Shown here piece after piece: positions 3,256-20,566 of a stretch of 64,000 nucleotides of DNA. The notes below the pieces were generated by a model, which saw only the letters and a list, made by a program, of their open reading frames with translations, searched no databases and was not told where the DNA came from. The DNA lies in contig OZ245892.1 of assembly GCA_965229605.1 (NCBI GenBank), forward strand, positions 1,608,102-1,672,101. The letters run 5' to 3'. The stretch is from Alphaproteobacteria bacterium (GTDB lineage: Bacteria; Pseudomonadota; Alphaproteobacteria; CBDDJK01). The translations under genes were made by a program, and so were the position numbers. Numbering within the stretch: the stretch's first letter is position 1; each line of letters starts with the position of its first letter.

Positions 3256-4758
3256 ATGCCAGGCTTGATGATTCAAGGAACCGGCTCCAATGTCGGGAAG
3301 TCGATGATTGTTGCCGGACTTTGCCGGGCCGCCGTGCGGCGCGGGATCAAAGTGGCCCCGTTCAAACCCCAGAATATGTCCAATAATGCGGCGGTTACCG
3401 TTGATGGCGGTGAAATAGGCCGTGCCCAGGCCTTGCAAGCCCTGGCCTGTCATCTACCGACCTCGGTTGATATGAATCCGGTATTGCTCAAACCGGAAGG
3501 CCAGCAATCGTCTCAGGTTATTGTGCAGGGAAAACGCCTGGAAACCGTTTCTGCCCGGGCCTATTCTGCATTGAAACCCCGGCTTTTACCAGCTGTGCTT
3601 GAAAGCTATCAGCGGCTGGAGCGAACCCATGGGTTGGTGCTGGTTGAAGGGGCTGGCAGCCCGGCTGAAGTGAACCTGCGGGCCAATGACATTGCCAATA
3701 TGGGCTTTGCCCATGCCGCAAATCTTCCGGTTGTGCTGGCCGGGGACATTGACCGGGGCGGCGTCATCGCCCAGCTGGTTGGCACCCATGCAATTTTACC
3801 GGCAGAAGATGAATCACGGATTAAAGGCTTTTTGATCAATAAATTCCGGGGCGATCCCCGGCTCTTCGATGATGGCTATCAGATGATTGAAGAACATACC
3901 GGCTGGCGCGGCTTCGGGGTTGTTCCCTATTTTGCCGAGGCCTGGAAACTGCCAGCCGAAGACGGGCAAGACCTGCTGCGCTATAATGACCATCATGATT
4001 CTAAAAAGAATCATTTTCATATTGTCTGTCTGGGTCTGCCGCATATTGCCAATTTTGATGATCTTGACCCGTTGGCACAAGAACCCGGCGTGAGCCTGAC
4101 CATGCTTAAATCAGGCGAAAGCCTGCCCGCAACCTGTGATCTGGTGATTATTCCAGGCAGCAAGGCCACCCGCCAAGACCTGATTTTCCTGAAAGACCAG
4201 GGCTGGGACATTGACCTGATGGCCCATATGCGGCGTGGCGGGAAAATTCTGGGGTTATGCGGGGGCTATCAAATGCTGGGAAGCGTGATCCGCGACCCGA
4301 AAGGATTGGAGCGTTTCACCCCAACCAACGCGCAATCCTCAAAAGACGAAACAGCCGGATTGAATCTGCTCCGGGTCGAAACCATCCTCAGCGCACAAAA
4401 GCACCTGACCCGCGTGCAAGCCCGACATAGCGAATCAGGGCTGACGATTGATGGCTATGAAATACATCTTGGAAAAACCAAGGGGCCGGATTGCGCCCGC
4501 CCCTTTGCCACGATCATTGAGGGCGATAAAACGCAGACAGAAGGGGCCTGTTCAGAAAATGGACAGATTCAAGGCACCTATCTGCACGGGCTTTTTACCA
4601 ATGATGATTTCCGGGCGCATTTCTTACGCGAACTTGGCGTGACGCAAGCCGGATCAACCCGTTACGAACAAACGCTTGATGAAACTTTGAATGCGCTTGC
4701 CGATCATCTGGAAGCGCATCTGGACTTGACGGGATTATTTGAACTGGCGGGAGGTTAG
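3256..4758 (+). CDS. cobQ: cobyric acid synthase
   Basis: The protein is 500 aa with the CobQ N-terminus ([20 protein letters not shown]), a dethiobiotin-synthase-like domain and a C-terminal GATase domain. It follows cobO. Confidence 0.9.
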
Positions 4759-5194
4759 GGCCAGGACTCATAAAATTCATCCATTCTGTTGGTCAAGAAA
4801 GGTAAAGATACAATGAAAACAAGCGAAAGCATAGTTTTAGCTACGGTGAGCTTGTTTGAAGCTGTAGATTTGCCTTTATTGACCAACCTTGTAAAGGCGC
4901 GGCAAATTTTTGTATCTGAACTTTCAAACCGCTTGCAATTAGCGATGGCTAGTGTACCGTTTCACTGATTTTCCGTCTCTTGCGGCTAGTCCGTTTGAAA
5001 ATCAGTGAAACATAAGGTGCACTAGCAAACTAACTTGCTAGTACTGCTTAATTTCAATAATTTGCTTATCGTAACTTGCGGACAGATTCGGCAAATTATT
5101 GAAATGCAGTACTAGTCACTGCACGCTTTTCAAGCCCATCTATCAAAAATTTGACACGCGCAGAACGGATGAATCTTATGGGTCCTGACCCTAA
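4755..5194. mobile_element. 440-bp structured non-coding element with imperfect 23-bp terminal inverted repeats (MITE-like). It lies between the convergent cobQ and nrdR.
   Basis: The left end TTAGGGCCAGGACTCATAAAATT (4755-4777) matches the reverse complement of the right end AATCTTATGGGTCCTGACCCTAA (5172-5194) at 20 of 23 positions. The interior is AT-richer than its surroundings. It holds two long imperfect hairpins (about 4949-5028 and 5038-5115) and a short hairpin between them, ctagcaaactaacttgctag. No ORF of 60 aa or more is present. Confidence 0.45.
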
Positions 5195-5652
5195 TTCTCT
5201 TTTGCGCTCAAGTCGCGGGCGACAAAATCAAGAAAATCCGTGGCCTCGCTAAAATCACGATAAACAGACGCAAAGCGGATATAGGCCACCTGATCAAGTT
5301 TCTGCAATTCCTCCATCACACATTCCCCGATAGAGGCCACCGGGACTTCCTGCTCGCCAACCGATTCCAGACGCCGGACAATCTCGTTGGCCACCATCTC
5401 GATCTTCTGCTGATCAATATTGCGCTTGCGCAAGGCGGTGCGCATGGAACGCACGATCTTTTCGCGCTCAAGCTGTTCGCGAGTCCCATCCTTTTTGATC
5501 ACCAGAAGCTCGCGCATCTGCACCCGCTCAAAGGTCGTGAAACGGGCACCACAACTGTTGCACTGGCGGCGGCGGCGGATGGCTCCACCGTCCTCGGTCG
5601 GGCGCGAATCACGCACCTGTGTATCATCATGTGAACAAAACGGACATTTCAT
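5191..5652 (-). CDS. nrdR: transcriptional repressor NrdR
   Basis: [42 protein letters not shown] shows the zinc ribbon and ATP-cone. Confidence 0.9.
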
Positions 5653-5715: not shown

Positions 5716-7026
5716 TTAACCAAATGCCTGGTCATAAAGCGGGAAATTCCTGGTCAGAGAAATCACCTTTGCCCGGACAGCAGCTTCAACCTGGCTGTTG
5801 TCTTCCGGGTTGTCTTGCAAACCGCGCAGGACTTCCAGAATCAACTGCCCGGTCTGTTTAAATTCGGCTTCGCCAAAGCCCCGGGTGGTTGCTGCCGGAG
5901 TGCCAAGACGAATCCCGCTGGTTACCGTCGGCTTTTCAGGGTCGCCCGGAACCGCGTTTTTATTGCAGGTAATCAGGGCGCGCTCCAGGCTTTTATCGGC
6001 AGCAACACCGGTTAATCCCATCGGGCGCAAATCAACCAGCAGCAAATGGGTATCCGTGCCACCTGAAACAATATCCAGTCCGCCAGCCGATAATTCGCGG
6101 GCCAGAATATCCGCATTATGACAGACTGCCTTGATATAGGTTTTAAATGCGGGTTCCAGAGCTTCGCCAAAACCAACCGCCTTGCCAGCAATCGCATGCA
6201 TCAAAGGCCCGCCTTGCAGGCCGGGAAAGATCGCACTGTTGATTTTTTTCGCCACATCCTCGCGGTTGGTTAAAATCAGCCCGCCCCGGCTGCAACGCAG
6301 GGTTTTATGGGTTGTCGAGGTCACAACATCAGCAAACGGCAGGGGGTCGGGATGTTCGCCTGCTGCAACCAGGCCTGAAATATGGGCCATATCAACCAGC
6401 AAATACGCCCCGACCTCATCGGCAATCGCGCGGAATTTTTCAAAGTCAATCACCCGTGGATAGGCCGATCCGCCAGCAATAATCATTTTGGGTTTTTGGC
6501 GATGCGCCATCTCGGCCACCTGATCATAATCAAGATAACCATCTTGCACGCGTACCCCGTAGCCTTCGGCCTTAAACCATTTGCCAGACTGATTGGGCGG
6601 GGCCCCGTGGGTTAAATGCCCGCCATGGGCCAGCGACATGCCCAGAATCGGGTCTCCCGGTTGCAGCAGGCTCATGAAAACTGCCTGATTGGCCTGTGAT
6701 CCCGAATGTGGCTGAACATTGACAAATTCGGCCCCGAACAATTTCTTTGCCCGCGCAATCGCCAGCATTTCAATTTCATCAGCATGAACACAGCCACCAT
6801 AATAACGCCGCCCGGAATAGCCTTCGGCATATTTATTGGTGAAGACAGACCCGCTGGCCTGCATGACGGCTCTCGAAACAATGTTTTCAGAGGCGATCAG
6901 CTCAATCCCCTCGTGCTGGCGTGCCAGTTCACGCGATAGAATAGCCGCAGCCTCCTGATCAGAAGCATCAACCGCTTGGTCAAAAAATTCAGCCCAGTTC
7001 GGGGACTTGTTAAGCATAATCGCCAA
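5716..7026 (-). CDS. glyA: serine hydroxymethyltransferase
   Basis: The protein is 436 aa with the SHMT PLP motif region (…[15 protein letters not shown]-like '[15 protein letters not shown]'). Confidence 0.95.
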
Positions 7027-7046
7027 TCTCCATTTTGAGGAAAATA

Positions 7047-8017: not shown

Positions 8018-8137
8018 GGTCCACTCCTCAAAGCTCGGCAAAATTATACGCTCCGCCAGTTATCTCACCTCAGCACGGATCAGACAAGTTGATTCTCCCG
8101 ATCAGAGGAATTTCTAATCGCTGAAATGCAAATTTTC

Positions 8138-8251: not shown

Positions 8252-8581
8252 ATGGCAACAAAAACTGTAACCGACGCCAGCTTTCAACAAGATGTTCTCC
8301 AATCACCCCATCCAGTCCTGGTCGACTATTGGGCCGAATGGTGCGCGCCATGCAAGATGATCGCTCCAGCACTTGAAGAACTCTCCAGCGATATGACCGG
8401 GAAACTCACCGTCGCAAAAATCAATATCGACGAAAACCCCGACACGCCAAGCAAATATGGAGTCCGGGGCATTCCAACCCTCATGCTGTTCAAAAACGGC
8501 GAAATTGTTGATATGAAAGTCGGTGCCATGTCCAAAAATCAGCTACAACGCTGGATCGAAGAAGAAGTTGAATCCGTATAA
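8252..8581 (+). CDS. trxA: thioredoxin
   Basis: [16 protein letters not shown]…[13 protein letters not shown] contains the WCxPC active site. A GGAG RBS precedes the ATG at 8252. Confidence 0.9.
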
Positions 8582-8623
8582 CATATAACGGAATCACTTT
8601 AAAAATCTCTCCAGAGAGTCATC

Positions 8624-9073
8624 ATGGCTGCGCAACATTCTGTCTGGCTGATCAATGGCCCTAATCTCAATCTGACGGGATACCGCCAGCCCGAGATTTA
8701 TGGCGCACGCACTTTGCCAGAAATTGATGAAGATGCCCGTGAATTTGCAAAGTCACTGGGCATTGCGCTAACCTGCAAACAATCCAATCATGAAGGGACC
8801 CTGATTGACTGGCTGCATGAGGCCAGATCCTCTGCCAACGGGGTTATTCTGAATGCCGGAGGCTATAGCCATACATCGGTTGCTCTGGCTGATGCGGTTG
8901 GTGCCTTTGACGGGCCAACGATTGAACTGCATTTGTCTAATATTCATGCCCGCGAGACTTTTCGCCAGCATTCGATGATTTCACGCGTTGCCGTCGGGCT
9001 GATTTGCGGGTTTGGGGCTGATGGCTACCGCCTGGCAATCAGCGCCATGCAGGTAATTTTAAACAAAAGCTGA
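8624..9073 (+). CDS. aroQ: 3-dehydroquinate dehydratase, type II
   Basis: The protein is 149 aa; …LINGPNLNLTGYRQPEIYG… and HLSNIHARE are AroQ signatures. Confidence 0.9.
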   Translation: MAAQHSVWLINGPNLNLTGYRQPEIYGARTLPEIDEDAREFAKSLGIALTCKQSNHEGTLIDWLHEARSSANGVILNAGGYSHTSVALADAVGAFDGPTIELHLSNIHARETFRQHSMISRVAVGLICGFGADGYRLAISAMQVILNKS

Positions 9074-9656: not shown

Positions 9657-11003
9657 ATGTTTGAAAAAATCCTTATTGCAAATCGTGGAGAAATCGCGCT
9701 GCGTATTCACCGCGCTTGCAAGGAGCTTGGCATAAATACTGTTGCAATCCATTCAACAGCCGATATGGATGCCATGCATGTAAGGCTTGCCGATGAGTCG
9801 GTCTGCATTGGGCCGCCACCGCCAAGGGATTCCTATTTAAATATGCAAGCCATCCTGTCTGCTGCCTTATTGACCGGGGCAGATGCGATCCATCCCGGCG
9901 TCGGGTTTTTATCTGAAAACGCCCGCTTTGCTGAAATGATTGAAGAACATGGCATGGTCTTTATTGGCCCGTCGGCTGAACATATCCGCTTGATGGGAGA
10001 TAAAATTCAGGCCAAGCAAGTGGCCAAGGAGCTTGGCCTGCCGGTGGTGCCCGGAAGTGACGGGGCTGTCAAAAGCAGCGAGGAAGCACAGGCGATTGCC
10101 AAGGAGATTGGTTTTCCGCTGATTATCAAGGCGGCTGCCGGAGGAGGAGGACGCGGCATGAAAGTCGCAACCCATCCTGACCAGCTGGCAGAGGCGATGG
10201 CTTTGTGCCAGGCCGAGGCCAAAGCCGCTTTTGGGGATGATGCGGTTTATCTTGAGCGTTATCTGGCCACCCCGCGCCATATTGAAATTCAGGTGCTTGG
10301 AGACGGGGCTGGACAATGTATCCATCTGGGAGAGCGCGATTGTTCCATTCAGCGTCGCCATCAAAAAATTATTGAGGAAACCCCGTCCCCTGGTCTGAAT
10401 GACGAGGTCCGCGATTCTATTGGGCAGATTGCGGCGGATGCTATGGCGCGCTTTAATTATCGCGGGGCCGGAACTATCGAGTTTTTATACGAAGAGAATG
10501 TGTTCGCCTTTATTGAAATGAATACCCGCCTTCAGGTTGAACATCCGATCACCGAGATGGTCACCGGCATTGATCTTGTGCGCGAACAAATCAAGATTGC
10601 AGCCGGGCATCCTTTATGTCTGACGCAAAAAGATGTCACCTTTAATGGCTGTGCGATTGAATGCCGGATCACGGCTGAACATCCCCGGACCTTTATGCCC
10701 TCGCCGGGGCGTATCGGCGATTATCACGCCGCAGGGGGGCCGGGTGTGCGTGTTGATAGCCATATTTATAGTGGTTATACAATCCCGCCATTTTATGATA
10801 GTCTGATTGCCAAACTGATTGTGCATGGTCATACGCGCAATGAATGTTTGCATCGCTTGAATCGTTCGCTAAATGAATATGCAATTAGCGGGATTGATAC
10901 GACTATTCCGCTTCACCGGGATATTATCGCACAAAAGGAATTTATTGACGGGATCTATAATATTCATTGGCTGGAGCAATGGATGTCTCAAAGCCAGAAT
11001 TAA
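9657..11003 (+). CDS. accC: acetyl-CoA carboxylase biotin carboxylase subunit
   Basis: The protein is 448 aa with an ATP-grasp fold. MFEKILIANRGEIALRI… is the canonical AccC N-terminus, and the gene follows accB. Confidence 0.95.
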   Translation: MFEKILIANRGEIALRIHRACKELGINTVAIHSTADMDAMHVRLADESVCIGPPPPRDSYLNMQAILSAALLTGADAIHPGVGFLSENARFAEMIEEHGMVFIGPSAEHIRLMGDKIQAKQVAKELGLPVVPGSDGAVKSSEEAQAIAKEIGFPLIIKAAAGGGGRGMKVATHPDQLAEAMALCQAEAKAAFGDDAVYLERYLATPRHIEIQVLGDGAGQCIHLGERDCSIQRRHQKIIEETPSPGLNDEVRDSIGQIAADAMARFNYRGAGTIEFLYEENVFAFIEMNTRLQVEHPITEMVTGIDLVREQIKIAAGHPLCLTQKDVTFNGCAIECRITAEHPRTFMPSPGRIGDYHAAGGPGVRVDSHIYSGYTIPPFYDSLIAKLIVHGHTRNECLHRLNRSLNEYAISGIDTTIPLHRDIIAQKEFIDGIYNIHWLEQWMSQSQN

Positions 11004-13370: not shown

Positions 13371-13390
13371 TAGGGTCCTGACCCTAAGCC
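13371..13390. repeat. palindrome TTAGGGTC-CT-GACCCTAA, a solo copy of the TIR core of the 4755-5194 element
   Basis: GGGTCCTGACCCTAA is identical to 5180-5194. It lies upstream of the response-regulator start. Confidence 0.6.
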
Positions 13391-15338: not shown

Positions 15339-18010
15339 GCCCGCTTCCTTCCCCCAGCCCCGTTATCACCCAGATTGAAGGCATGATCCGTAAAGGGGAG
15401 ATGCAGCAGGCTATTCAGGCTGGCAGCGCAGCCCTTAAAGCGGTTTCACAGCCAAAGCGCACTAAAGCGTCTTCCAACCGGGTCCCGCCACGGCGAAAAA
15501 TACCCAAGGGCGGGCGCAAGAAAAATCCGCAAGCCCCTCAAAACCAAGCCAGTCAGCCAGAGGTCAGGCTGGATAAAGATCAACGCCAGCATGTCGCCTT
15601 TCTGGTGGCGGTTGCACAAGCCAATCTTGATGGCGGCAAGAAGACTCCAAAGGGAATCGAGGCTCTGCATGAACTGGTTGATATAGAATCGCCCTACCCG
15701 CCAGCCGCCGAGGCTCTGGGGCAATATTATTATAAAACCAGCGATCACGAGAAGACCATACGCTATTATGAAATAGCCATCAGCCAAGCGAAGAAAGTAA
15801 CTGAATCGCATTTCCATCTTGCAAGTGCCTATTTTAACAGCGGGAATGCAACGCAGGCTCTGAAGTGGCTGGCCCCTTATCTGGAGAAAAATCCTGATAA
15901 AATCGATGCCTGTATCCTGAAAGGGCAAGCGCATAACTTGCTTGGCCAGTCGGCCGAGGCCCTTGCCGCTTTTGAAAATGTCTTGAAGCAAGCCCCAAAA
16001 AATCAGCGCGCGCTCTATCTTCATGCGCTGGTTGCGCAAAAAATGGACAAGTCGGAACTGGTCATACAAAGCTGCCGGACGGCTCTAGCACTATCGCCCG
16101 GCAATGCTCAGATGTGGATGATGTTGGGCCTCGCCCTGCATAATCTGAACGATCAAAAAGCCGCCTATCTTGCAAATAATAAAGTCCGAAAGCTCACACG
16201 CAAAGACAACCGGACAGTCTATAATCAGGCCCGCCTGAATTGTGTGCGATTGCTTAACCTTATCGGAAAGCCAAAATTGGGACTGGCCATCTTCCTGCGC
16301 CAGGCCCGACTTGAACCGGTGACCAATAAATCGACCATGGATTTGGCCTATCAGGCCTATCGGGCCTCCAGCCGCGATATCGCGCTTGGCAGCTTGCAGG
16401 AAAAAATTGATCAGGGCAGTGACTACCCGGAATTTTTCCTCTTGCTGGGACGTTTGCAAAATCAGTCTGGCGATTTCACGGATGCTCAAAAAACCCTTGA
16501 AGCCGGGTTAAAAATACACCCGAAACATGCTCTGATGCGGATCAGGCTGGTAGAATCTTTCCTTGGCCGCAAGATGAATGAAGAAGCCGCACAGATTCTT
16601 GATGGATTTTCTAAAGACGATATCGCCGCTCTGGAGCCAGATGTGCGGATTCATTATTTTCTGCGCCGACGCACGCTGCTGTCACGCTATCCCGATAAAA
16701 AAGCCGAAGCCGCTGATATGCTCGATCATGCCCTTGGCACCGACCCGCAGGCAATGGATGCCTGGTTCGGGCGGGCCTTTGCCTATGATGCCGAACGCCG
16801 CTATGGCGCAAGCTTGGCGGTCTGTGATGAAAATGCCCGCCGCTTCCCCAATCAGGTTGAAACCTATGTTGCGCGTGGTCATGCTTTAAGCCACCTCAAT
16901 TTAGCCTCGGTATCCGTGCGTGACCTTGATCGCGGGCTGGCCCTTGACCCCAATTCAGTCAATGTCCATCGCAATATGTCGATCAGTAAATTGATGCTGC
17001 AAGACTATCCGCAGGGATTTTACGAATTTGACTGGCGGTGGAAAATGACAAACGATGGCAACTCAAATGCCATCAACACTCGCCAGCGACTTAAAGCCCC
17101 GCCCCTGACCAACCCGGAAGACGCACGCGGCAAGATTGTGCTGCTTTATGGCGAACAGGGCAACGGCGATGTCATCCAGTTTCTACGCTATGTGCCTGTC
17201 CTCGCCAGTTACGGGGCCACCATATGGATGATGGTTCAAAAAGTATATACCGGGATTTTACCGCTTCTTAAAAATTTCCCCGGCATAAAAGTCGTCTTGA
17301 AAGGTGAAACCCCCACCGATGATTTACGCTATGATTATCATGCCTCCCTGATGGACCTGCCGGGGCTTTTTGCAACCACACTGGACAATATCCCGCCGCC
17401 TGTTCCCTTTTACATTGACCCGGAGCGAAAAGAAAAATGGCGCAGCCGACTAAGCAGCTTGCCTGATCTTGGACCAAGAGTCGGGCTGGTCTGTGAAAGC
17501 GGGAAAGGATTTCTCAATAATATGCTGCGCTCCATCGGATTTGAGAATTTTCGCCCTCTTTTCGATATGCCGGTTCACTATATCTGTCTGCAAAAAGACA
17601 TCGCGCCAGAAGACCGCGAATGGCTGGATAAAATTCCAAACCTTTCCATTATCGGACCGGAATTTGAAAATTTTGCCGATACAGCTGCCGTCATCGAAGA
17701 ATTAAATCTGGTGATTTCAACCTGCACCTCAACCGCGCATCTTGCCATGACTCAAGGGGTCGCAACCATGACCATGCAGCCCTGGCGTGGCGACTGGCGC
17801 TGGGGCCTGCAAAGCCAAAAAAGTCTATGGTATGAAAGTGCCACGCTTGTCCGTCAACATCGCTCCCGCGACTGGTCAGCCGTCCTTGATCTCTTGCGCG
17901 GCAAGCTCTGGCGATGGATCGATGCAGGCTGCCCAAAGACACTGCCCGACCCCTTTGCTGTCAAGAGCGTACACATAGACGCCACCCTGCCTGACAATCA
18001 ACATGCCTGA
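15335..18010 (+). CDS. TPR-repeat protein with a C-terminal glycosyltransferase family 9 (heptosyltransferase-like) domain
   Basis: The ATG overlaps the aspS stop (ATGA). It has a Lys/Arg-rich N-terminal region and multiple TPR-like helices. The C-terminal …[24 protein letters not shown]… matches the GT9 -SNDSGPMHLAAAxGTPxVAL- signature. Confidence 0.55.
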
Positions 18011-18706
18011 TTGAAACTATTAAAAAAATTGCCTGTTCTATGGAAGCGCATTACTTGCTCTATTGCATCTTTTGCGTAAAAAAACTTAAAAATCAATAGC
18101 TTTACCCATGCCATAAAATTTCTTTTTCTTGCCCAAAAATCGATTTTGCTTTATTTCCAATAGACTGGACAGGTGAGTCAAATGAGACAATATCTGTCAA
18201 CAGTAATTATTACTGATTCCACAAAATATGATCCTTGATCGATTCAGCCCCCCCTTTTATATATGACCTATTGCAGTCAGATGGTGTCGAACAAAAGCAG
18301 ATGCAGAGCAAAAGCAAAGCAAATGCGGGGGTCGAACAAAGACGCAAATAGTGTATAGGCAACGCCCAATCTTGCAAGAAATGATGCACAGACGGGCCAT
18401 GGACCTGACACGAAAAAACTATACTATGTATTCAATATATGCGCGGTATTCAACGTGCATAGCAAGACATGTGGGGTGTCTGAGATAGAGATTATAAGTC
18501 ATGCGGGCTAATCACCTGCATTGCACAGGTTTAGTTTGCTTATAATATATTAATGCACCCGGGTTTTGCTGGTCTGATATTTAATGCCGCAAAGCAGGTG
18601 CTGACACACGATAACACATAAAGGGGCAACACCCGTTTGGCCGGTTTTTACCGGTGATCGGGAAGGGCGAAGCTGTATCGCTCGTTTAGGAAGGGATGGT
18701 GACGCA
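18011..18706 (+). promoter_or_regulatory. about 700-bp AT-rich non-coding region upstream of dnaA (dnaA promoter; possible origin-proximal region)
   Basis: It has no ORF and low GC. Two GANTC (GATTC) sites lie at 18215-18219 and 18241-18245. TGATTCCACAAA (18214-18225) is DnaA-box-like, and gtcgaacaaa occurs as a direct repeat. Confidence 0.35.
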
Positions 18707-20566
18707 ATGTCTCCAGAAAACAGACAAATGCTCAGGACTCATGTTCACACTGAAACAGGAGACACGGGTTCACCTGTCAATCTGTCTGCCGACCCGCCTG
18801 TTCCGCCTTCTTCAATTCCTTACCAACCCCTTGATCCTGCTAACCCAGCCCAAAAAACTTCTCTCCCTAACATCGAATATACTAACATTGAATATAAAGG
18901 CATCAACGATAAAGAGATCGAAGACGTTGCCTCTATTCGTGAAAAAATTTCTGCCGGAAAGAACAAGTTCTCACCTGATCCTATATCGCCGGGCGACTTA
19001 TTAGGCGCCTGGAAGCTTGCGGCCTATAAACTGAGCGGAGAATTCAGCCGTGCCACCGTAGACCGGGTTTTCTCCCAGCTCCAGCTACGCGACTATCGTG
19101 ATGGAATTGTCATTCTGGAAACCCGGAACGAGCTGGCCTTGCGCAGTGCCCGCGATGTCCATCTTGAAACCATTGAATCGGCACTTCAAGATGCCTTTCC
19201 CGGCACGCACCCTGTCAAGGGCGTGGACATTATCCTGGCCCCTCCGCGGCAGGCTGACGCAAATAACCCGGATGCACAGCTTATTCGGGCAGAAAATGCA
19301 GGCAAAGTCTTTACATTTCCTCCACATGGCGGGATGAATAACGGCTATGCGGCTCCGGCAGCAAACCTGCCCGGATCAGCGCGTGCAAAAACCCGCCGCT
19401 CCAGTCGCTTCTATATGCCGTCGCCTTTTTCTGAAGAAGACCCGCTTTATGCCGTCTATGCCCCGCTGGCGCACCCTCTTTTGCCGCGTCACCGGTTTGA
19501 TCACTTCATTATTGATGATACAAATCTGCTCCCCCATACAGTCGCCAAGCGTGCCGCTCTGGACAGTGAAAGCGATGACTTCAGCCCCCTGATTTTTCAT
19601 GGCGCCTCCGGTGTCGGGAAAACCCACCTGTTGCAGGCCATTGCCTATGAATTGGGAACCCACCATCCCGATGTCCCGACCATCTGTTTTCAAGCAAATA
19701 TCTTCAAGCACCAGTTCTATATGGCCATAAAAAACCGCGATACCGTCAGTTTCCGCGAAATGTTGCGCCAATTTGAAGTCTTGATCATTGATGATCTGCA
19801 CCGAATGCGCGGACAGCATCGGGCCCTTGAAGAAATTATGAATATTCTCGATGAATTTAAAACAATGGGTAAAAGAGTTTATCTTGCACTCAACCAGCCC
19901 CTGCACGAATTACAGGATTTTCCAGAAGCCCTGCTGACTCGTCTGGCCGGAGGGATGACCCTTGAAATTAAAGCCCCGGGCCATGCCTTGAAGCTCAAGG
20001 CGTTAAAACTTGAAGCCGAACGGCTTGGGCTTGCTTCAGTAATCCGGCCCGAAATCTATGATATGATCGTTCAGGAAACACAAGGCGGCGTGCGGGAACT
20101 CTATTGTATCGCCGTGCGGATGCAGGGAATGCAGGACTACCTGACACAGATCAGTGGAAAAAGCCCCTATGATGCAAATCCTGCTCAAGATTCTGCTTCT
20201 GCCTACTGGACAAAAGAACGAGTCCTCTCCCTGATACAAGAACAGCAAGGCGAGGCAAGGCGGGTCAAAATGTCCGATATTCTTGCCTTATGTTCGCAAC
20301 GCTTTGGGGTGACCCGTCAGGCTTTATTCTCTCGCCAGCGGTCCAGAAATATTTCGCGCTGCCGCCATGTTGCTGCCTATCTGGCAAAAAATATGACCAG
20401 TAAATCCTTGCCGGAAATCGGGCGTGATCTTGGCGGGCTTGATCATACCAGCGTGCTTTATGCCTTGCGCCAGATGGCCAGGAAGATGGAAGACGATGCA
20501 AGTTTTCGCGACGAGGTCGAAGACCTTGCAAGACGGCTGCGCTACGGCATAAAATACGAAGAATAG
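18707..20566 (+). CDS. dnaA: chromosomal replication initiator DnaA family protein (619 aa, with extended N-terminus and linker)
   Basis: Domain I-like …LGAWKLAAYKLSGEFSRATVDRVFSQLQLRDYRDGIVILETRNELALRS… is present. The AAA+ domain has Walker A GASGVGKTHLL and Walker B VLIIDDLH. Domain IV reads …ISRCRHVAAYLAKNMTSKSLPEIGRDLGGLDHTSVLYAL…. Confidence 0.8.
   Translation: MSPENRQMLRTHVHTETGDTGSPVNLSADPPVPPSSIPYQPLDPANPAQKTSLPNIEYTNIEYKGINDKEIEDVASIREKISAGKNKFSPDPISPGDLLGAWKLAAYKLSGEFSRATVDRVFSQLQLRDYRDGIVILETRNELALRSARDVHLETIESALQDAFPGTHPVKGVDIILAPPRQADANNPDAQLIRAENAGKVFTFPPHGGMNNGYAAPAANLPGSARAKTRRSSRFYMPSPFSEEDPLYAVYAPLAHPLLPRHRFDHFIIDDTNLLPHTVAKRAALDSESDDFSPLIFHGASGVGKTHLLQAIAYELGTHHPDVPTICFQANIFKHQFYMAIKNRDTVSFREMLRQFEVLIIDDLHRMRGQHRALEEIMNILDEFKTMGKRVYLALNQPLHELQDFPEALLTRLAGGMTLEIKAPGHALKLKALKLEAERLGLASVIRPEIYDMIVQETQGGVRELYCIAVRMQGMQDYLTQISGKSPYDANPAQDSASAYWTKERVLSLIQEQQGEARRVKMSDILALCSQRFGVTRQALFSRQRSRNISRCRHVAAYLAKNMTSKSLPEIGRDLGGLDHTSVLYALRQMARKMEDDASFRDEVEDLARRLRYGIKYEE

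Follow-up and report, generated by a model that had tools for sequence, protein, structure and literature searches.

A probable miniature transposable element, itself interrupted by a second small element, in the spacer between convergent cobQ and nrdR genes of an alphaproteobacterium

Two convergent genes, cobQ and nrdR, face each other across a 432-bp spacer in a 64,000-nt stretch of alphaproteobacterial DNA (GenBank assembly GCA_965229605.1, contig OZ245892.1, positions 1,608,102 to 1,672,101; hereafter the window), and the question raised by this locus is what occupies the space between them. An earlier sequence-only reading had described a 440-bp structured feature with terminal inverted repeats (TIRs), and had offered three identities for it: a non-autonomous transposable element, a structured small RNA (sRNA) gene with a bidirectional terminator, or a unit akin to repetitive extragenic palindromes (REP) and bacterial interspersed mosaic elements (BIME). 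Our analysis points to the first of these, with a probability of roughly 0.9: the feature is a non-autonomous DNA transposon of the miniature inverted-repeat transposable element (MITE) kind, with a second small element nested inside it. It is smaller than ~600 bp, possesses no transposase gene, is bounded by TIRs and by a target-site duplication, and exists as multiple polymorphic copies at unrelated loci.

The spacer itself is present largely as first described. Open reading frames (ORFs) of the window place cobQ and nrdR in convergent orientation, and the 23-mer TTAGGGCCAGGACTCATAAAATT at positions 4755–4777 of the plus strand recurs on the minus strand at 5172–5194 with three mismatches, in keeping with the 20 of 23 positions originally counted; none of 100 shuffled sequences gave any such match. 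When target bases are included, the inverted repeat spans 34 nt with 88 % complementarity (4755–4788 and 5161–5194), and it measures 31 nt when counted inside the element alone. Both repeats harbour the stop codon of the adjoining gene, that of cobQ being the TAG at 4756–4758 (the TA of the target followed by the element's initial G) and that of nrdR the TAG complementary to 5191–5193 (the target TA together with the last element base). The spacer is AT-rich, with a GC content of 40.5 % against 52.4 % for the window, and the 440 nt fold at −185 kcal/mol on the plus strand and −189 kcal/mol on the minus strand (z = −14.4 and −15.1, respectively, relative to shuffles). The two consecutive long hairpins sharing a CTAG motif were also located, with arms at 4948–4973/4997–5026 and 5038–5065/5091–5115. 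With a seed of 11, the spacer is the sole place in the window with a long inverted repeat, and a search with a family profile (nhmmer) finds no other full copy there. Only the extent of the feature needed amendment: its inverted-repeat ends are real, but the element proper comprises 434 bp, with the T-TA and TA-A at its edges belonging to the target.

Evidence for mobility comes from variants of the same locus. The NrdR protein is identical (100 %) to that encoded on 21 contigs, which were used to fetch them; the next relatives are only ~70 % identical, and derive from uncultured or marine Rhodospirillales-like Alphaproteobacteria. Ten of the variants are strain-level, being 95–97 % identical in the nrdR–glyA region, and two are more distant at 91–93 % (L017 and L018); the sister strains are from the same metagenome as the window. 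A look-up based on a RidA-like protein of the window added no further variants. The 434-bp form of the window recurs in L004, L005, L007–L010 and L012, a 271-bp form occurs in L003, and L006, L011 and L018 are empty, as is L017, in which 22 bp from the nrdR 3′ end are in addition duplicated in tandem. The empty site in L006 and L011 reads AAAGAGAAT-TA-ACCTCC, with nrdR and cobQ overlapping by 4 bp (TTAA), and that of L018 has TTAG. Filled alleles read AAT-TA-[GGGTC...GACCC]-TA-ACC. Insertion duplicated the TA and, because the element begins with G, converted both stop codons from TAA to TAG, with neither protein altered. It also moved the two genes 432 bp apart, such that each 3′ end now enters a strong hairpin. 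As the more distant strains L017 and L018 are without the element, its presence is the derived state. Duplication of the TA is directly seen, by comparison of filled and empty alleles, at three sites: nrdR/cobQ, rpiB/glyA and trx/ssb. The sequence-only reading had named a single-copy feature, kept in place and with no empty site, as the finding that would speak against a transposable element; the locus shows the reverse, with empty sites in L006, L011 and L018 and further copies elsewhere. Separately, the arrangement in L017, the strain that diverges most (10440–10485), where nrdR and cobQ are parted by two tandem copies of GATTTAAGCGCAAAAGAGAATT and no MITE, is an independent way to un-overlap the two stop codons.

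The difference between the two filled forms reveals a second insertion, which the sequence-only reading had not separated from the first. L003 is shorter than the other filled alleles by exactly 163 bp, with a clean junction (GACTAGCC), and the extra piece of the long form corresponds to window positions 4952–5112 plus one TA, with CTAG on both sides. The inner element is inserted at C-TA-G, with TA at 4950–4951 and 5113–5114, within the apical loop that caps the second hairpin of the outer element. At other loci, all 271-bp copies display the same junction uninterrupted, and across all long copies the inner element is 99–100 % identical. It is made of two tandem, related hairpin units of ~75 bp, B (4949–5026) and A (5038–5115), which align with a score of 55 against 23 ± 6.7 for shuffles; the CTAG-sharing hairpins noted above are therefore the inner element itself. 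The 434-bp composite has moved as a unit in turn, as copies of it occur in cas1 (see below). The CTAG motif is found five times within 167 bp (4949–5115), at 4949, 4987, 5022, 5038 and 5112, where it bounds the hairpin units and a 12-nt palindromic linker, CTAGCAAACTAACTTGCTAG, which, by comparison with the 12-nt remnants left by the outer element, may be what remains of a third unit. A different hairpin element, of 141 bp, is nested between TGTA repeats in a relative from another assembly (L019, 1364–1504; GCA_964445195.1), in frame with the incidental ORF of the family, so that a protein of 117 aa is predicted. Small palindromic elements seem to have become nested in this MITE family repeatedly.

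Copies also occur beyond nrdR/cobQ. Within the host loci examined, one population has seven full copies, each with its own insertion point, distributed over six genomic regions. These include the 271-bp form at four loci other than nrdR/cobQ and the 434-bp composite twice within cas1; four remnant sites are present as well. At rpiB/glyA, which is empty in the window (~7020–7030), L004 carries a 271-bp copy (8351–8622) inserted after the ATGCT of glyA itself. In L008, L010 and L012 (~8608–8642), a deletion between AATGGA microhomologies has left only the last 32 nt of a MITE copy, and in the same event glyA lost its own start codon and ribosome-binding region. The 32-nt MITE end now starts this gene (ATG AGT CCT GAC CCT AAC), so that its product, serine hydroxymethyltransferase, begins MSPDPNK... 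instead of MLNK... and is 436 rather than 433 aa long. At trx/ssb, empty, full and remnant states coexist in the population: a 271-bp copy resides in L006, even though that strain is empty at nrdR/cobQ, a 15-nt remnant is found in L007, L008, L009 and L012, and L017 has the empty sequence TTTAATT. The L004 rpiB/glyA and L006 trx/ssb copies display 95–96 % identity. A further arrangement of the trx/ssb spacer, neither empty nor remnant, is seen in the window (~8060–8125) and in L003, L004, L005, L010 and L011, with ATTTCAGCGATTAGAAATTCCTCTGATC in place of GCATCTTTAATT.

Another copy (L021) is on the same contig as L005, at a distance of ~100 kb, between MotA/ExbB-like and OmpA-like genes, at the TAA stop of the former and 2 nt before the next ATG. 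Two further insertions concern cas1 of a type II CRISPR-Cas locus (cas9, cas1, cas2), which is broken by two 434-bp copies of 97 % identity, in direct orientation and 400 bp apart (L035/L036, 3716–5585). Excising both copies in silico restores an open 311-aa Cas1, and a sister genome possesses an intact cas1 of 94 % identity (L037, 5001–5948).

Remnants of the form TA-GGGTC NN GACCC-TA occur at three further sites. One of these is in the window, at 13371–13386, where the 12-nt palindromic tip of the element stands between two TAs upstream of a response-regulator gene; it is shared by L004, L008 and L011 and is missing from the other strains. Such 12-mers arise because the TIR tip is palindromic, and deletion between its repeated halves yields them. 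These scattered intergenic palindromes (GGGTC-NN-GACCC) superficially resemble REP sequences, and it is on this resemblance that the reading of a REP/BIME-like unit, kept by a REP-associated tyrosine transposase (RAYT; TnpA-REP), would depend. The palindromes are, however, TA-flanked element tips, which at one site occur alongside both a full copy and an empty allele, and the complete element, at 271–434 bp with 31-nt TIRs, has ends that match insertion sequences (ISs) with DDE transposases and not a RAYT system. With size, TIRs, TA flanks and IS5-type termini all contrary to it, this identity is scarcely credible and was set aside.

A different possibility is that the sequence is a conserved structured sRNA gene, or a small-protein gene (a 70-aa ORF beginning MKTSES), native to the locus. 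The extreme fold z-scores and the sequence blocks kept across lineages would agree with this, as would the ORF, which gene callers predict in many copies and which, with an upstream AAGG, appears in 15 protein clusters. Substitutions are nevertheless spread evenly over codon positions (13/18/15 in L020, 8/9/9 in L019 and 2/9/5 in L021), non-synonymous codons outnumber synonymous ones (27 : 5, 15 : 6 and 12 : 3, respectively), one copy is frameshifted, and compensatory changes in the stems rewrite the peptide (LLTNL, FPANP or FLFGL). On these codon-position counts, which bear no mark of purifying selection, the ORF was rejected as coding. A search of Rfam 15 at a permissive threshold (E ≤ 1), as had been proposed with the sequence-only reading, matched no RNA family, returning only two chance plant miRNA hits of 24 and 20 bits against gathering thresholds of 140 and 95; the 271-bp form returned nothing. 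An empty site, together with multiple unrelated insertion sites, equally contradicts a gene native to the locus. An sRNA or small-protein gene is thus already largely refuted as the origin of this sequence, and is very improbable overall. The earlier proposal of an sRNA gene or bidirectional terminator consequently falls as an account of where the sequence came from, and stands only as a possible secondary role.

That role has to be weighed against the internal structure of the element. Nine copies from six lineages were aligned, and their common fold has an outer stem of paired TIRs, a subterminal hairpin (I2) and a second hairpin (H3), a three-stem structure in which 96.2 % of cells pair. 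Double-sided changes occur in 42 of the 105 pairs, compared with 15.2 ± 2.5 in shuffled alignments and 4–11 when partners are slid. Helices 3–5 of I2 contribute compensatory changes in 14 of 36 pairs, and its basal stem differs entirely by lineage and stays complementary (GGTCAA/TTGACC, AGCCGG/CCGGCT and GCCGAACAGG/CTTGTTCGGC), while its apical part is nearly invariant in sequence. I2 is stabler on the plus strand of the window in seven of seven lineages, with G·U to A·C pair positions at 10 : 2; H3, in the uninterrupted 271-bp form, is stabler on the minus strand in all seven (4 : 10), and the TIR stem is balanced in this respect. In these folding models, I2 and H3 each prefer the strand running inward from whichever end is closer. 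The asymmetry fits RNA hairpins in transcripts entering the element from its flanks, and it equally fits single-stranded DNA hairpins at the ends of a transposon.

Only in its structural conservation and strand asymmetry does the element exceed what an ordinary MITE would show, and a role in the host is conceivable, as a mobile, two-sided 3′-end hairpin module acting at the RNA level (a terminator, insulator or mRNA stabiliser). Its merits are that all three stems are kept across lineages by compensatory pairs, that I2 and H3 show opposite strand preferences throughout, that many insertions are at gene 3′ ends or in operons, and that the Correia and ERIC MITEs affect flanking mRNAs (PMC2229807). 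We consider it unlikely all the same. A consensus scan for promoters and terminators found nothing convincing for cobQ or nrdR, and no canonical intrinsic terminator (stem plus U-run) for either gene; empty alleles persist in the population, and the element is also found in promoter regions and disrupts cas1. The mirror-image asymmetry is equally expected if single-stranded DNA hairpins serve transposition, homogenisation of palindrome arms by template switching could mimic covariation without selection, and the sample is small, at seven lineages. A more specific version, slightly more doubtful again, is that of a mobile, mirror-symmetric RNA-structure cassette with one hairpin in each half, selected on the inward-reading strand, and tips that provide a stop codon (TA plus G) on entry and an ATG on exit. 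If true, it would give transcripts from either side a stable 3′ hairpin wherever the element lands, and would account for its being tolerated within operons, at stop codons and, in one gene, at the start codon.

Two further structural points may be added. An origin of the two halves as an ancient inverted duplication was rejected, as beyond the TIR they score 39 against 31 ± 7 for shuffles. A predicted site for integration host factor (IHF) has a perfect match, TATCAAAAATTTG, to the consensus WATCAANNNNTTR and lies in the most conserved block of the family; since the 64 kb contain four matches to this consensus against 3.2 expected, its location is only suggestive.

Regarding the enzyme that would mobilise the MITE, viral contigs were scanned with the 18-nt tip. 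Most of the matches were due to chance (e.g. a phage GroEL encoding MGPDP) and were discarded. Two of the matches are informative. One, on an IMG/VR contig (L048, 8315–8584), is 268 bp long and shares the 20-nt TIR and the TA flanks, with an unrelated interior, and therefore the same type of transposase probably services several MITE families. The other (L050) has TA-GGGTCAGGACCCATTAATC followed by a frameshifted IS5-family transposase, recognised by NF033580 at 206 bits against a cut-off of 110, with DUF4096 (PF13340) and DDE_Tnp_1 (PF01609) domains in two frames joined at A AAA AGG GGG. Within the IS5 family, the IS427 group is described as characterised by two overlapping ORFs with a frameshift motif and by an IHF-like site in the left inverted repeat (IRL), and IS1248 is reported to form cointegrates (PMC3281130). 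From relatives of this transposase, six complete ISs of 831–868 bp were recovered, with ends GGGTCAGGACCCATTGA... and ...ATGAGTCCTGACCC and flanked by TA...TA in CTAG, TTAG or TTAA. The closest annotated relative on a plasmid is an ‘IS5-like element ISPam4 family transposase’ from Paracoccus aminophilus pAMI2, which is 86 % identical; the ends there are the same.

The 14-nt tips of the MITE (GGGTCAGGACCCAT) match the ends of seven ISs, including ISPam4, at 11–14 of 14 positions, and MITE and ISs share the difference between C (left) and T (right) at position 12. For the L027 MITE and the L058 IS, up to 20 of 24 nt are shared. Beyond the tips, target choice is alike: MITE copies use TTAA, TTAG and CTAA, the inner element uses CTAG, and all of these are YTAR. 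Given the tip match and the YTAR target, an IS427-group-type IS5 transposase is a better candidate than one of IS630/Tc1-mariner type, the classical TA-duplicating family, as in the case of RUP in pneumococcus. The latter would account for the TA duplication, and RUP, Correia and ERIC all have TA termini (PMC2229807), but TA alone does not discriminate, as the matching IS5-family ISs duplicate it themselves. The agreement of the tips, down to the left–right difference, and targets that are YTAR and not merely TA both favour the IS5 type, and no IS630-type element with these ends turned up, none having been retrieved for comparison; an IS630-type mobiliser is accordingly a poor prospect. An element of the IS110/bridge-RNA type was also rejected, as the targets share only YTAR, the TIRs are long and the hairpins are favoured on opposite strands.

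Judged from the shared termini and targets, it is probable that a transposase of one of the IS427-group-type (ISPam4-like) elements mobilises the MITE. A 271-bp element with 31-nt TIRs (tip GGGTCAGGAC[C/T]CAT) entered the TA of TTAA where nrdR and cobQ overlapped by 4 bp, and the 161-bp double-hairpin element then came to lie at CTAG in the apical loop of the second hairpin. In the proposed mechanism, an IS5-family DDE transposase of the IS427 group (ISPam4/IS1248-like) would act in trans, binding both TIRs, possibly aided by IHF at the conserved internal site, cutting the target with a 2-nt stagger at TA and joining the ends. Copies would later be lost via deletion between short repeats, leaving remnants of 12–32 nt.

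Several observations weigh against this account of a TA-targeting MITE moved by an IS427-type enzyme. Both cas1 copies are flanked by CA...TA, with the CA on the same flank, L022 has flanks of TA...TT and neither flank of L028 is TA, and to these flanks a strict TA duplication is an imperfect fit. Five flanks depart from TA...TA, and it is always the outer base that differs, with the flanking A and T never altered. Intact Cas1 has leucine at the first junction in nine of nine aligned homologues, and at the second in its two closest relatives; it is therefore probable that the codons before insertion read TTA and CTA, within the targets TTAA and CTAA. A model without duplication, in which AGGG...CCCT sits between T and A, was raised by the CA...TA flanks, and the leucine junctions make TA targets the likelier of the two. 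The repeated T-to-C change beside the same end in both cas1 copies possibly reflects gene conversion between them or imprecision at that end. The interior, moreover, is more conserved than the inner TIR and strongly covarying, which is unexpected for a purely selfish MITE. No copies were present in four strain variants covering window positions 14–36 kb (SdhA-centred loci). Only the terminal 14–20 nt are common to MITE and ISs, the inner TIR and interior being unrelated, and the element is therefore not a simple deletion derivative of such an IS. Finally, a search of the window and of ~430 kb of host DNA, most of it redundant, brought up no transposase of the IS427-group family, and for this reason we infer the mobilising enzyme in the host.

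With regard to the distribution of the family, the translation of the incidental ORF was used as a protein probe and the conserved internal block as a DNA probe. The former returned 15 clusters of hypothetical proteins of 51–117 aa (P0123–P0137) from ENA, JGI and NCBI gene calls; at least 15 such clusters are thus translations of the MITE, and annotation artefacts rather than genes. Diverged members, of roughly 65–75 % identity, were identified in other assemblies (L019, L020, L022, L023, a 186-bp form, L027 and L028, a record with the AACY accession prefix), along with a solo end (L001); relatives exist in at least five other lineages. Most of these are flanked by TA in TTAA, TTAG or CTAA, and several provide a TAG stop upstream or an ATG start downstream (ATG-RGT-CCT-GAC-CCT-A). 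A TIR pattern scan of representative genomes retrieved only one solo end, in an alphaproteobacterial metagenome-assembled genome, and one probable chance match, the source species evidently being unrepresented. The same kind of scan found nothing in JGI metagenomes, because the inner TIRs of the relatives have diverged; a scan of these metagenomes with the internal block gave four real members and seven chance matches. A blastn search against plasmids yielded no match to the element, and a literature search on the terminal sequence brought up irrelevant results only. With no Rfam, plasmid or literature match for its termini, the sequence family appears to be undescribed, although its kind, a bacterial MITE cross-mobilised by an IS, is already well known.

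In its workings the element resembles the classical TA-flanked bacterial MITEs. RUP (pneumococcus, IS630-Spn1), Correia/NEMIS (Neisseria) and ERIC (enterobacteria) are likewise small and non-coding, with TIRs, TA duplication and transcripts forming long stem–loops; they insert beside and within genes, and have contiguous ORFs that fuse to host ORFs (PMC2229807). Correia further resembles the present family in having an IHF site in its 155-bp form and length variants that differ by an internal segment (PMC2229807). In contrast, these elements are unrelated in sequence, approximately half as long and formed of one end-to-end stem, where the element described here has three stems with two internal hairpins and a putative IS5-family rather than IS630 partner. 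The CIR elements of Caulobacter and Brucella also have alphaproteobacterial hosts, two independent hairpin arms and TA termini, but they measure ~110 bp, lack a TIR and possess a conserved GANTC loop, a motif that is not conserved in our alignment. RPE of Rickettsia, again alphaproteobacterial, similarly enters coding sequence and contributes codons; it is 100–150 bp long and lies in frame inside proteins, whereas this MITE supplies stop and start codons at gene boundaries. A eukaryotic counterpart is offered by the Tourist-type MITEs of PIF/Harbinger transposons, themselves relatives of IS5, which are short, share TIRs with their partners and are cross-mobilised by an IS5-like DDE transposase at a T/A-rich palindromic target, and which differ in having a 3-bp TWA duplication. 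A further comparison is with the IS427-group ISs (ISPam4 and IS1248-like), with which the element shares its termini (GGGTCAGGACCCAT... and ...ATGAGTCCTGACCC), YTAR TA flanks, alphaproteobacterial hosts and an IHF-like site near one end; they differ in being 831–868 bp long with a frameshifted DDE transposase, compared with 271 bp (434 bp with its passenger) and no transposase for the MITE.

The locus therefore offers a clean natural example in which filled, empty, nested and remnant states coexist in one strain population. An insertion exactly at two overlapping stop codons has preserved both genes, a remnant has come to provide the start of glyA, and cas1 has been inactivated by two copies. 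The locus further connects a MITE family with IS427-group IS5 elements, and the structural covariation within this MITE is unusually strong. In terms of annotation, both the 432-bp structured spacer and spurious hypothetical proteins of 51–117 aa in public databases are accounted for. Coordinates of the features are collected in Table 1.

Table 1. Features of the cobQ–nrdR locus and related sequence in the window (positions are those of the 64,000-nt stretch)
Feature	Position	Strand	Basis or remark
cobQ (cobyric acid synthase-like; CbiA/GATase_3)	3256–4758	+	ORF; Pfam families of orthologue
nrdR	5191–5652	−	ORF; orthologue comparison
Left target TA copy	4756–4757	.	Empty versus filled alleles
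Right target TA copy	5192–5193	.	Empty versus filled alleles
Probable composite MITE (outer 271-bp element plus 163-bp nested insertion)	4758–5191 (434 bp)	.	Presence/absence polymorphism at the site
Left TIR	4758–4788		GACTCAT, like the right ends (IRR) of related ISs
Right TIR	5161–5191		GACCCAT on the complement, like the left ends (IRL) of related ISs
Subterminal hairpin I2	4788–4887 (arms 4788–4812/4863–4887)	+	Fold, covariation, strand asymmetry
Hairpin H3 of outer element	4897–5159 (arms ~4897–4948/5116–5159)	−	Helices 7–9 of the fold; apical loop interrupted by inner element
Inner nested element (161 bp)	4952–5112	.	Missing from L003 and every 271-bp copy
Incidental ORF (MKTSES...)	4814–4969	+	51 aa here, 70 aa in 271-bp form
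Predicted IHF site	5141–5153	+	Perfect consensus match
Remnant of another copy	13371–13386	.	TA-GGGTCCTGACCC-TA inside T..A

Elsewhere in the window, dnaA (18707–20566) encodes 619 aa, and its orthologue has Bac_DnaA domains. The 697 bp before it (18010–18707) form a non-coding stretch, which may be the chromosomal replication origin. The region in which MITE insertions are concentrated lies 5–14 kb from this stretch.

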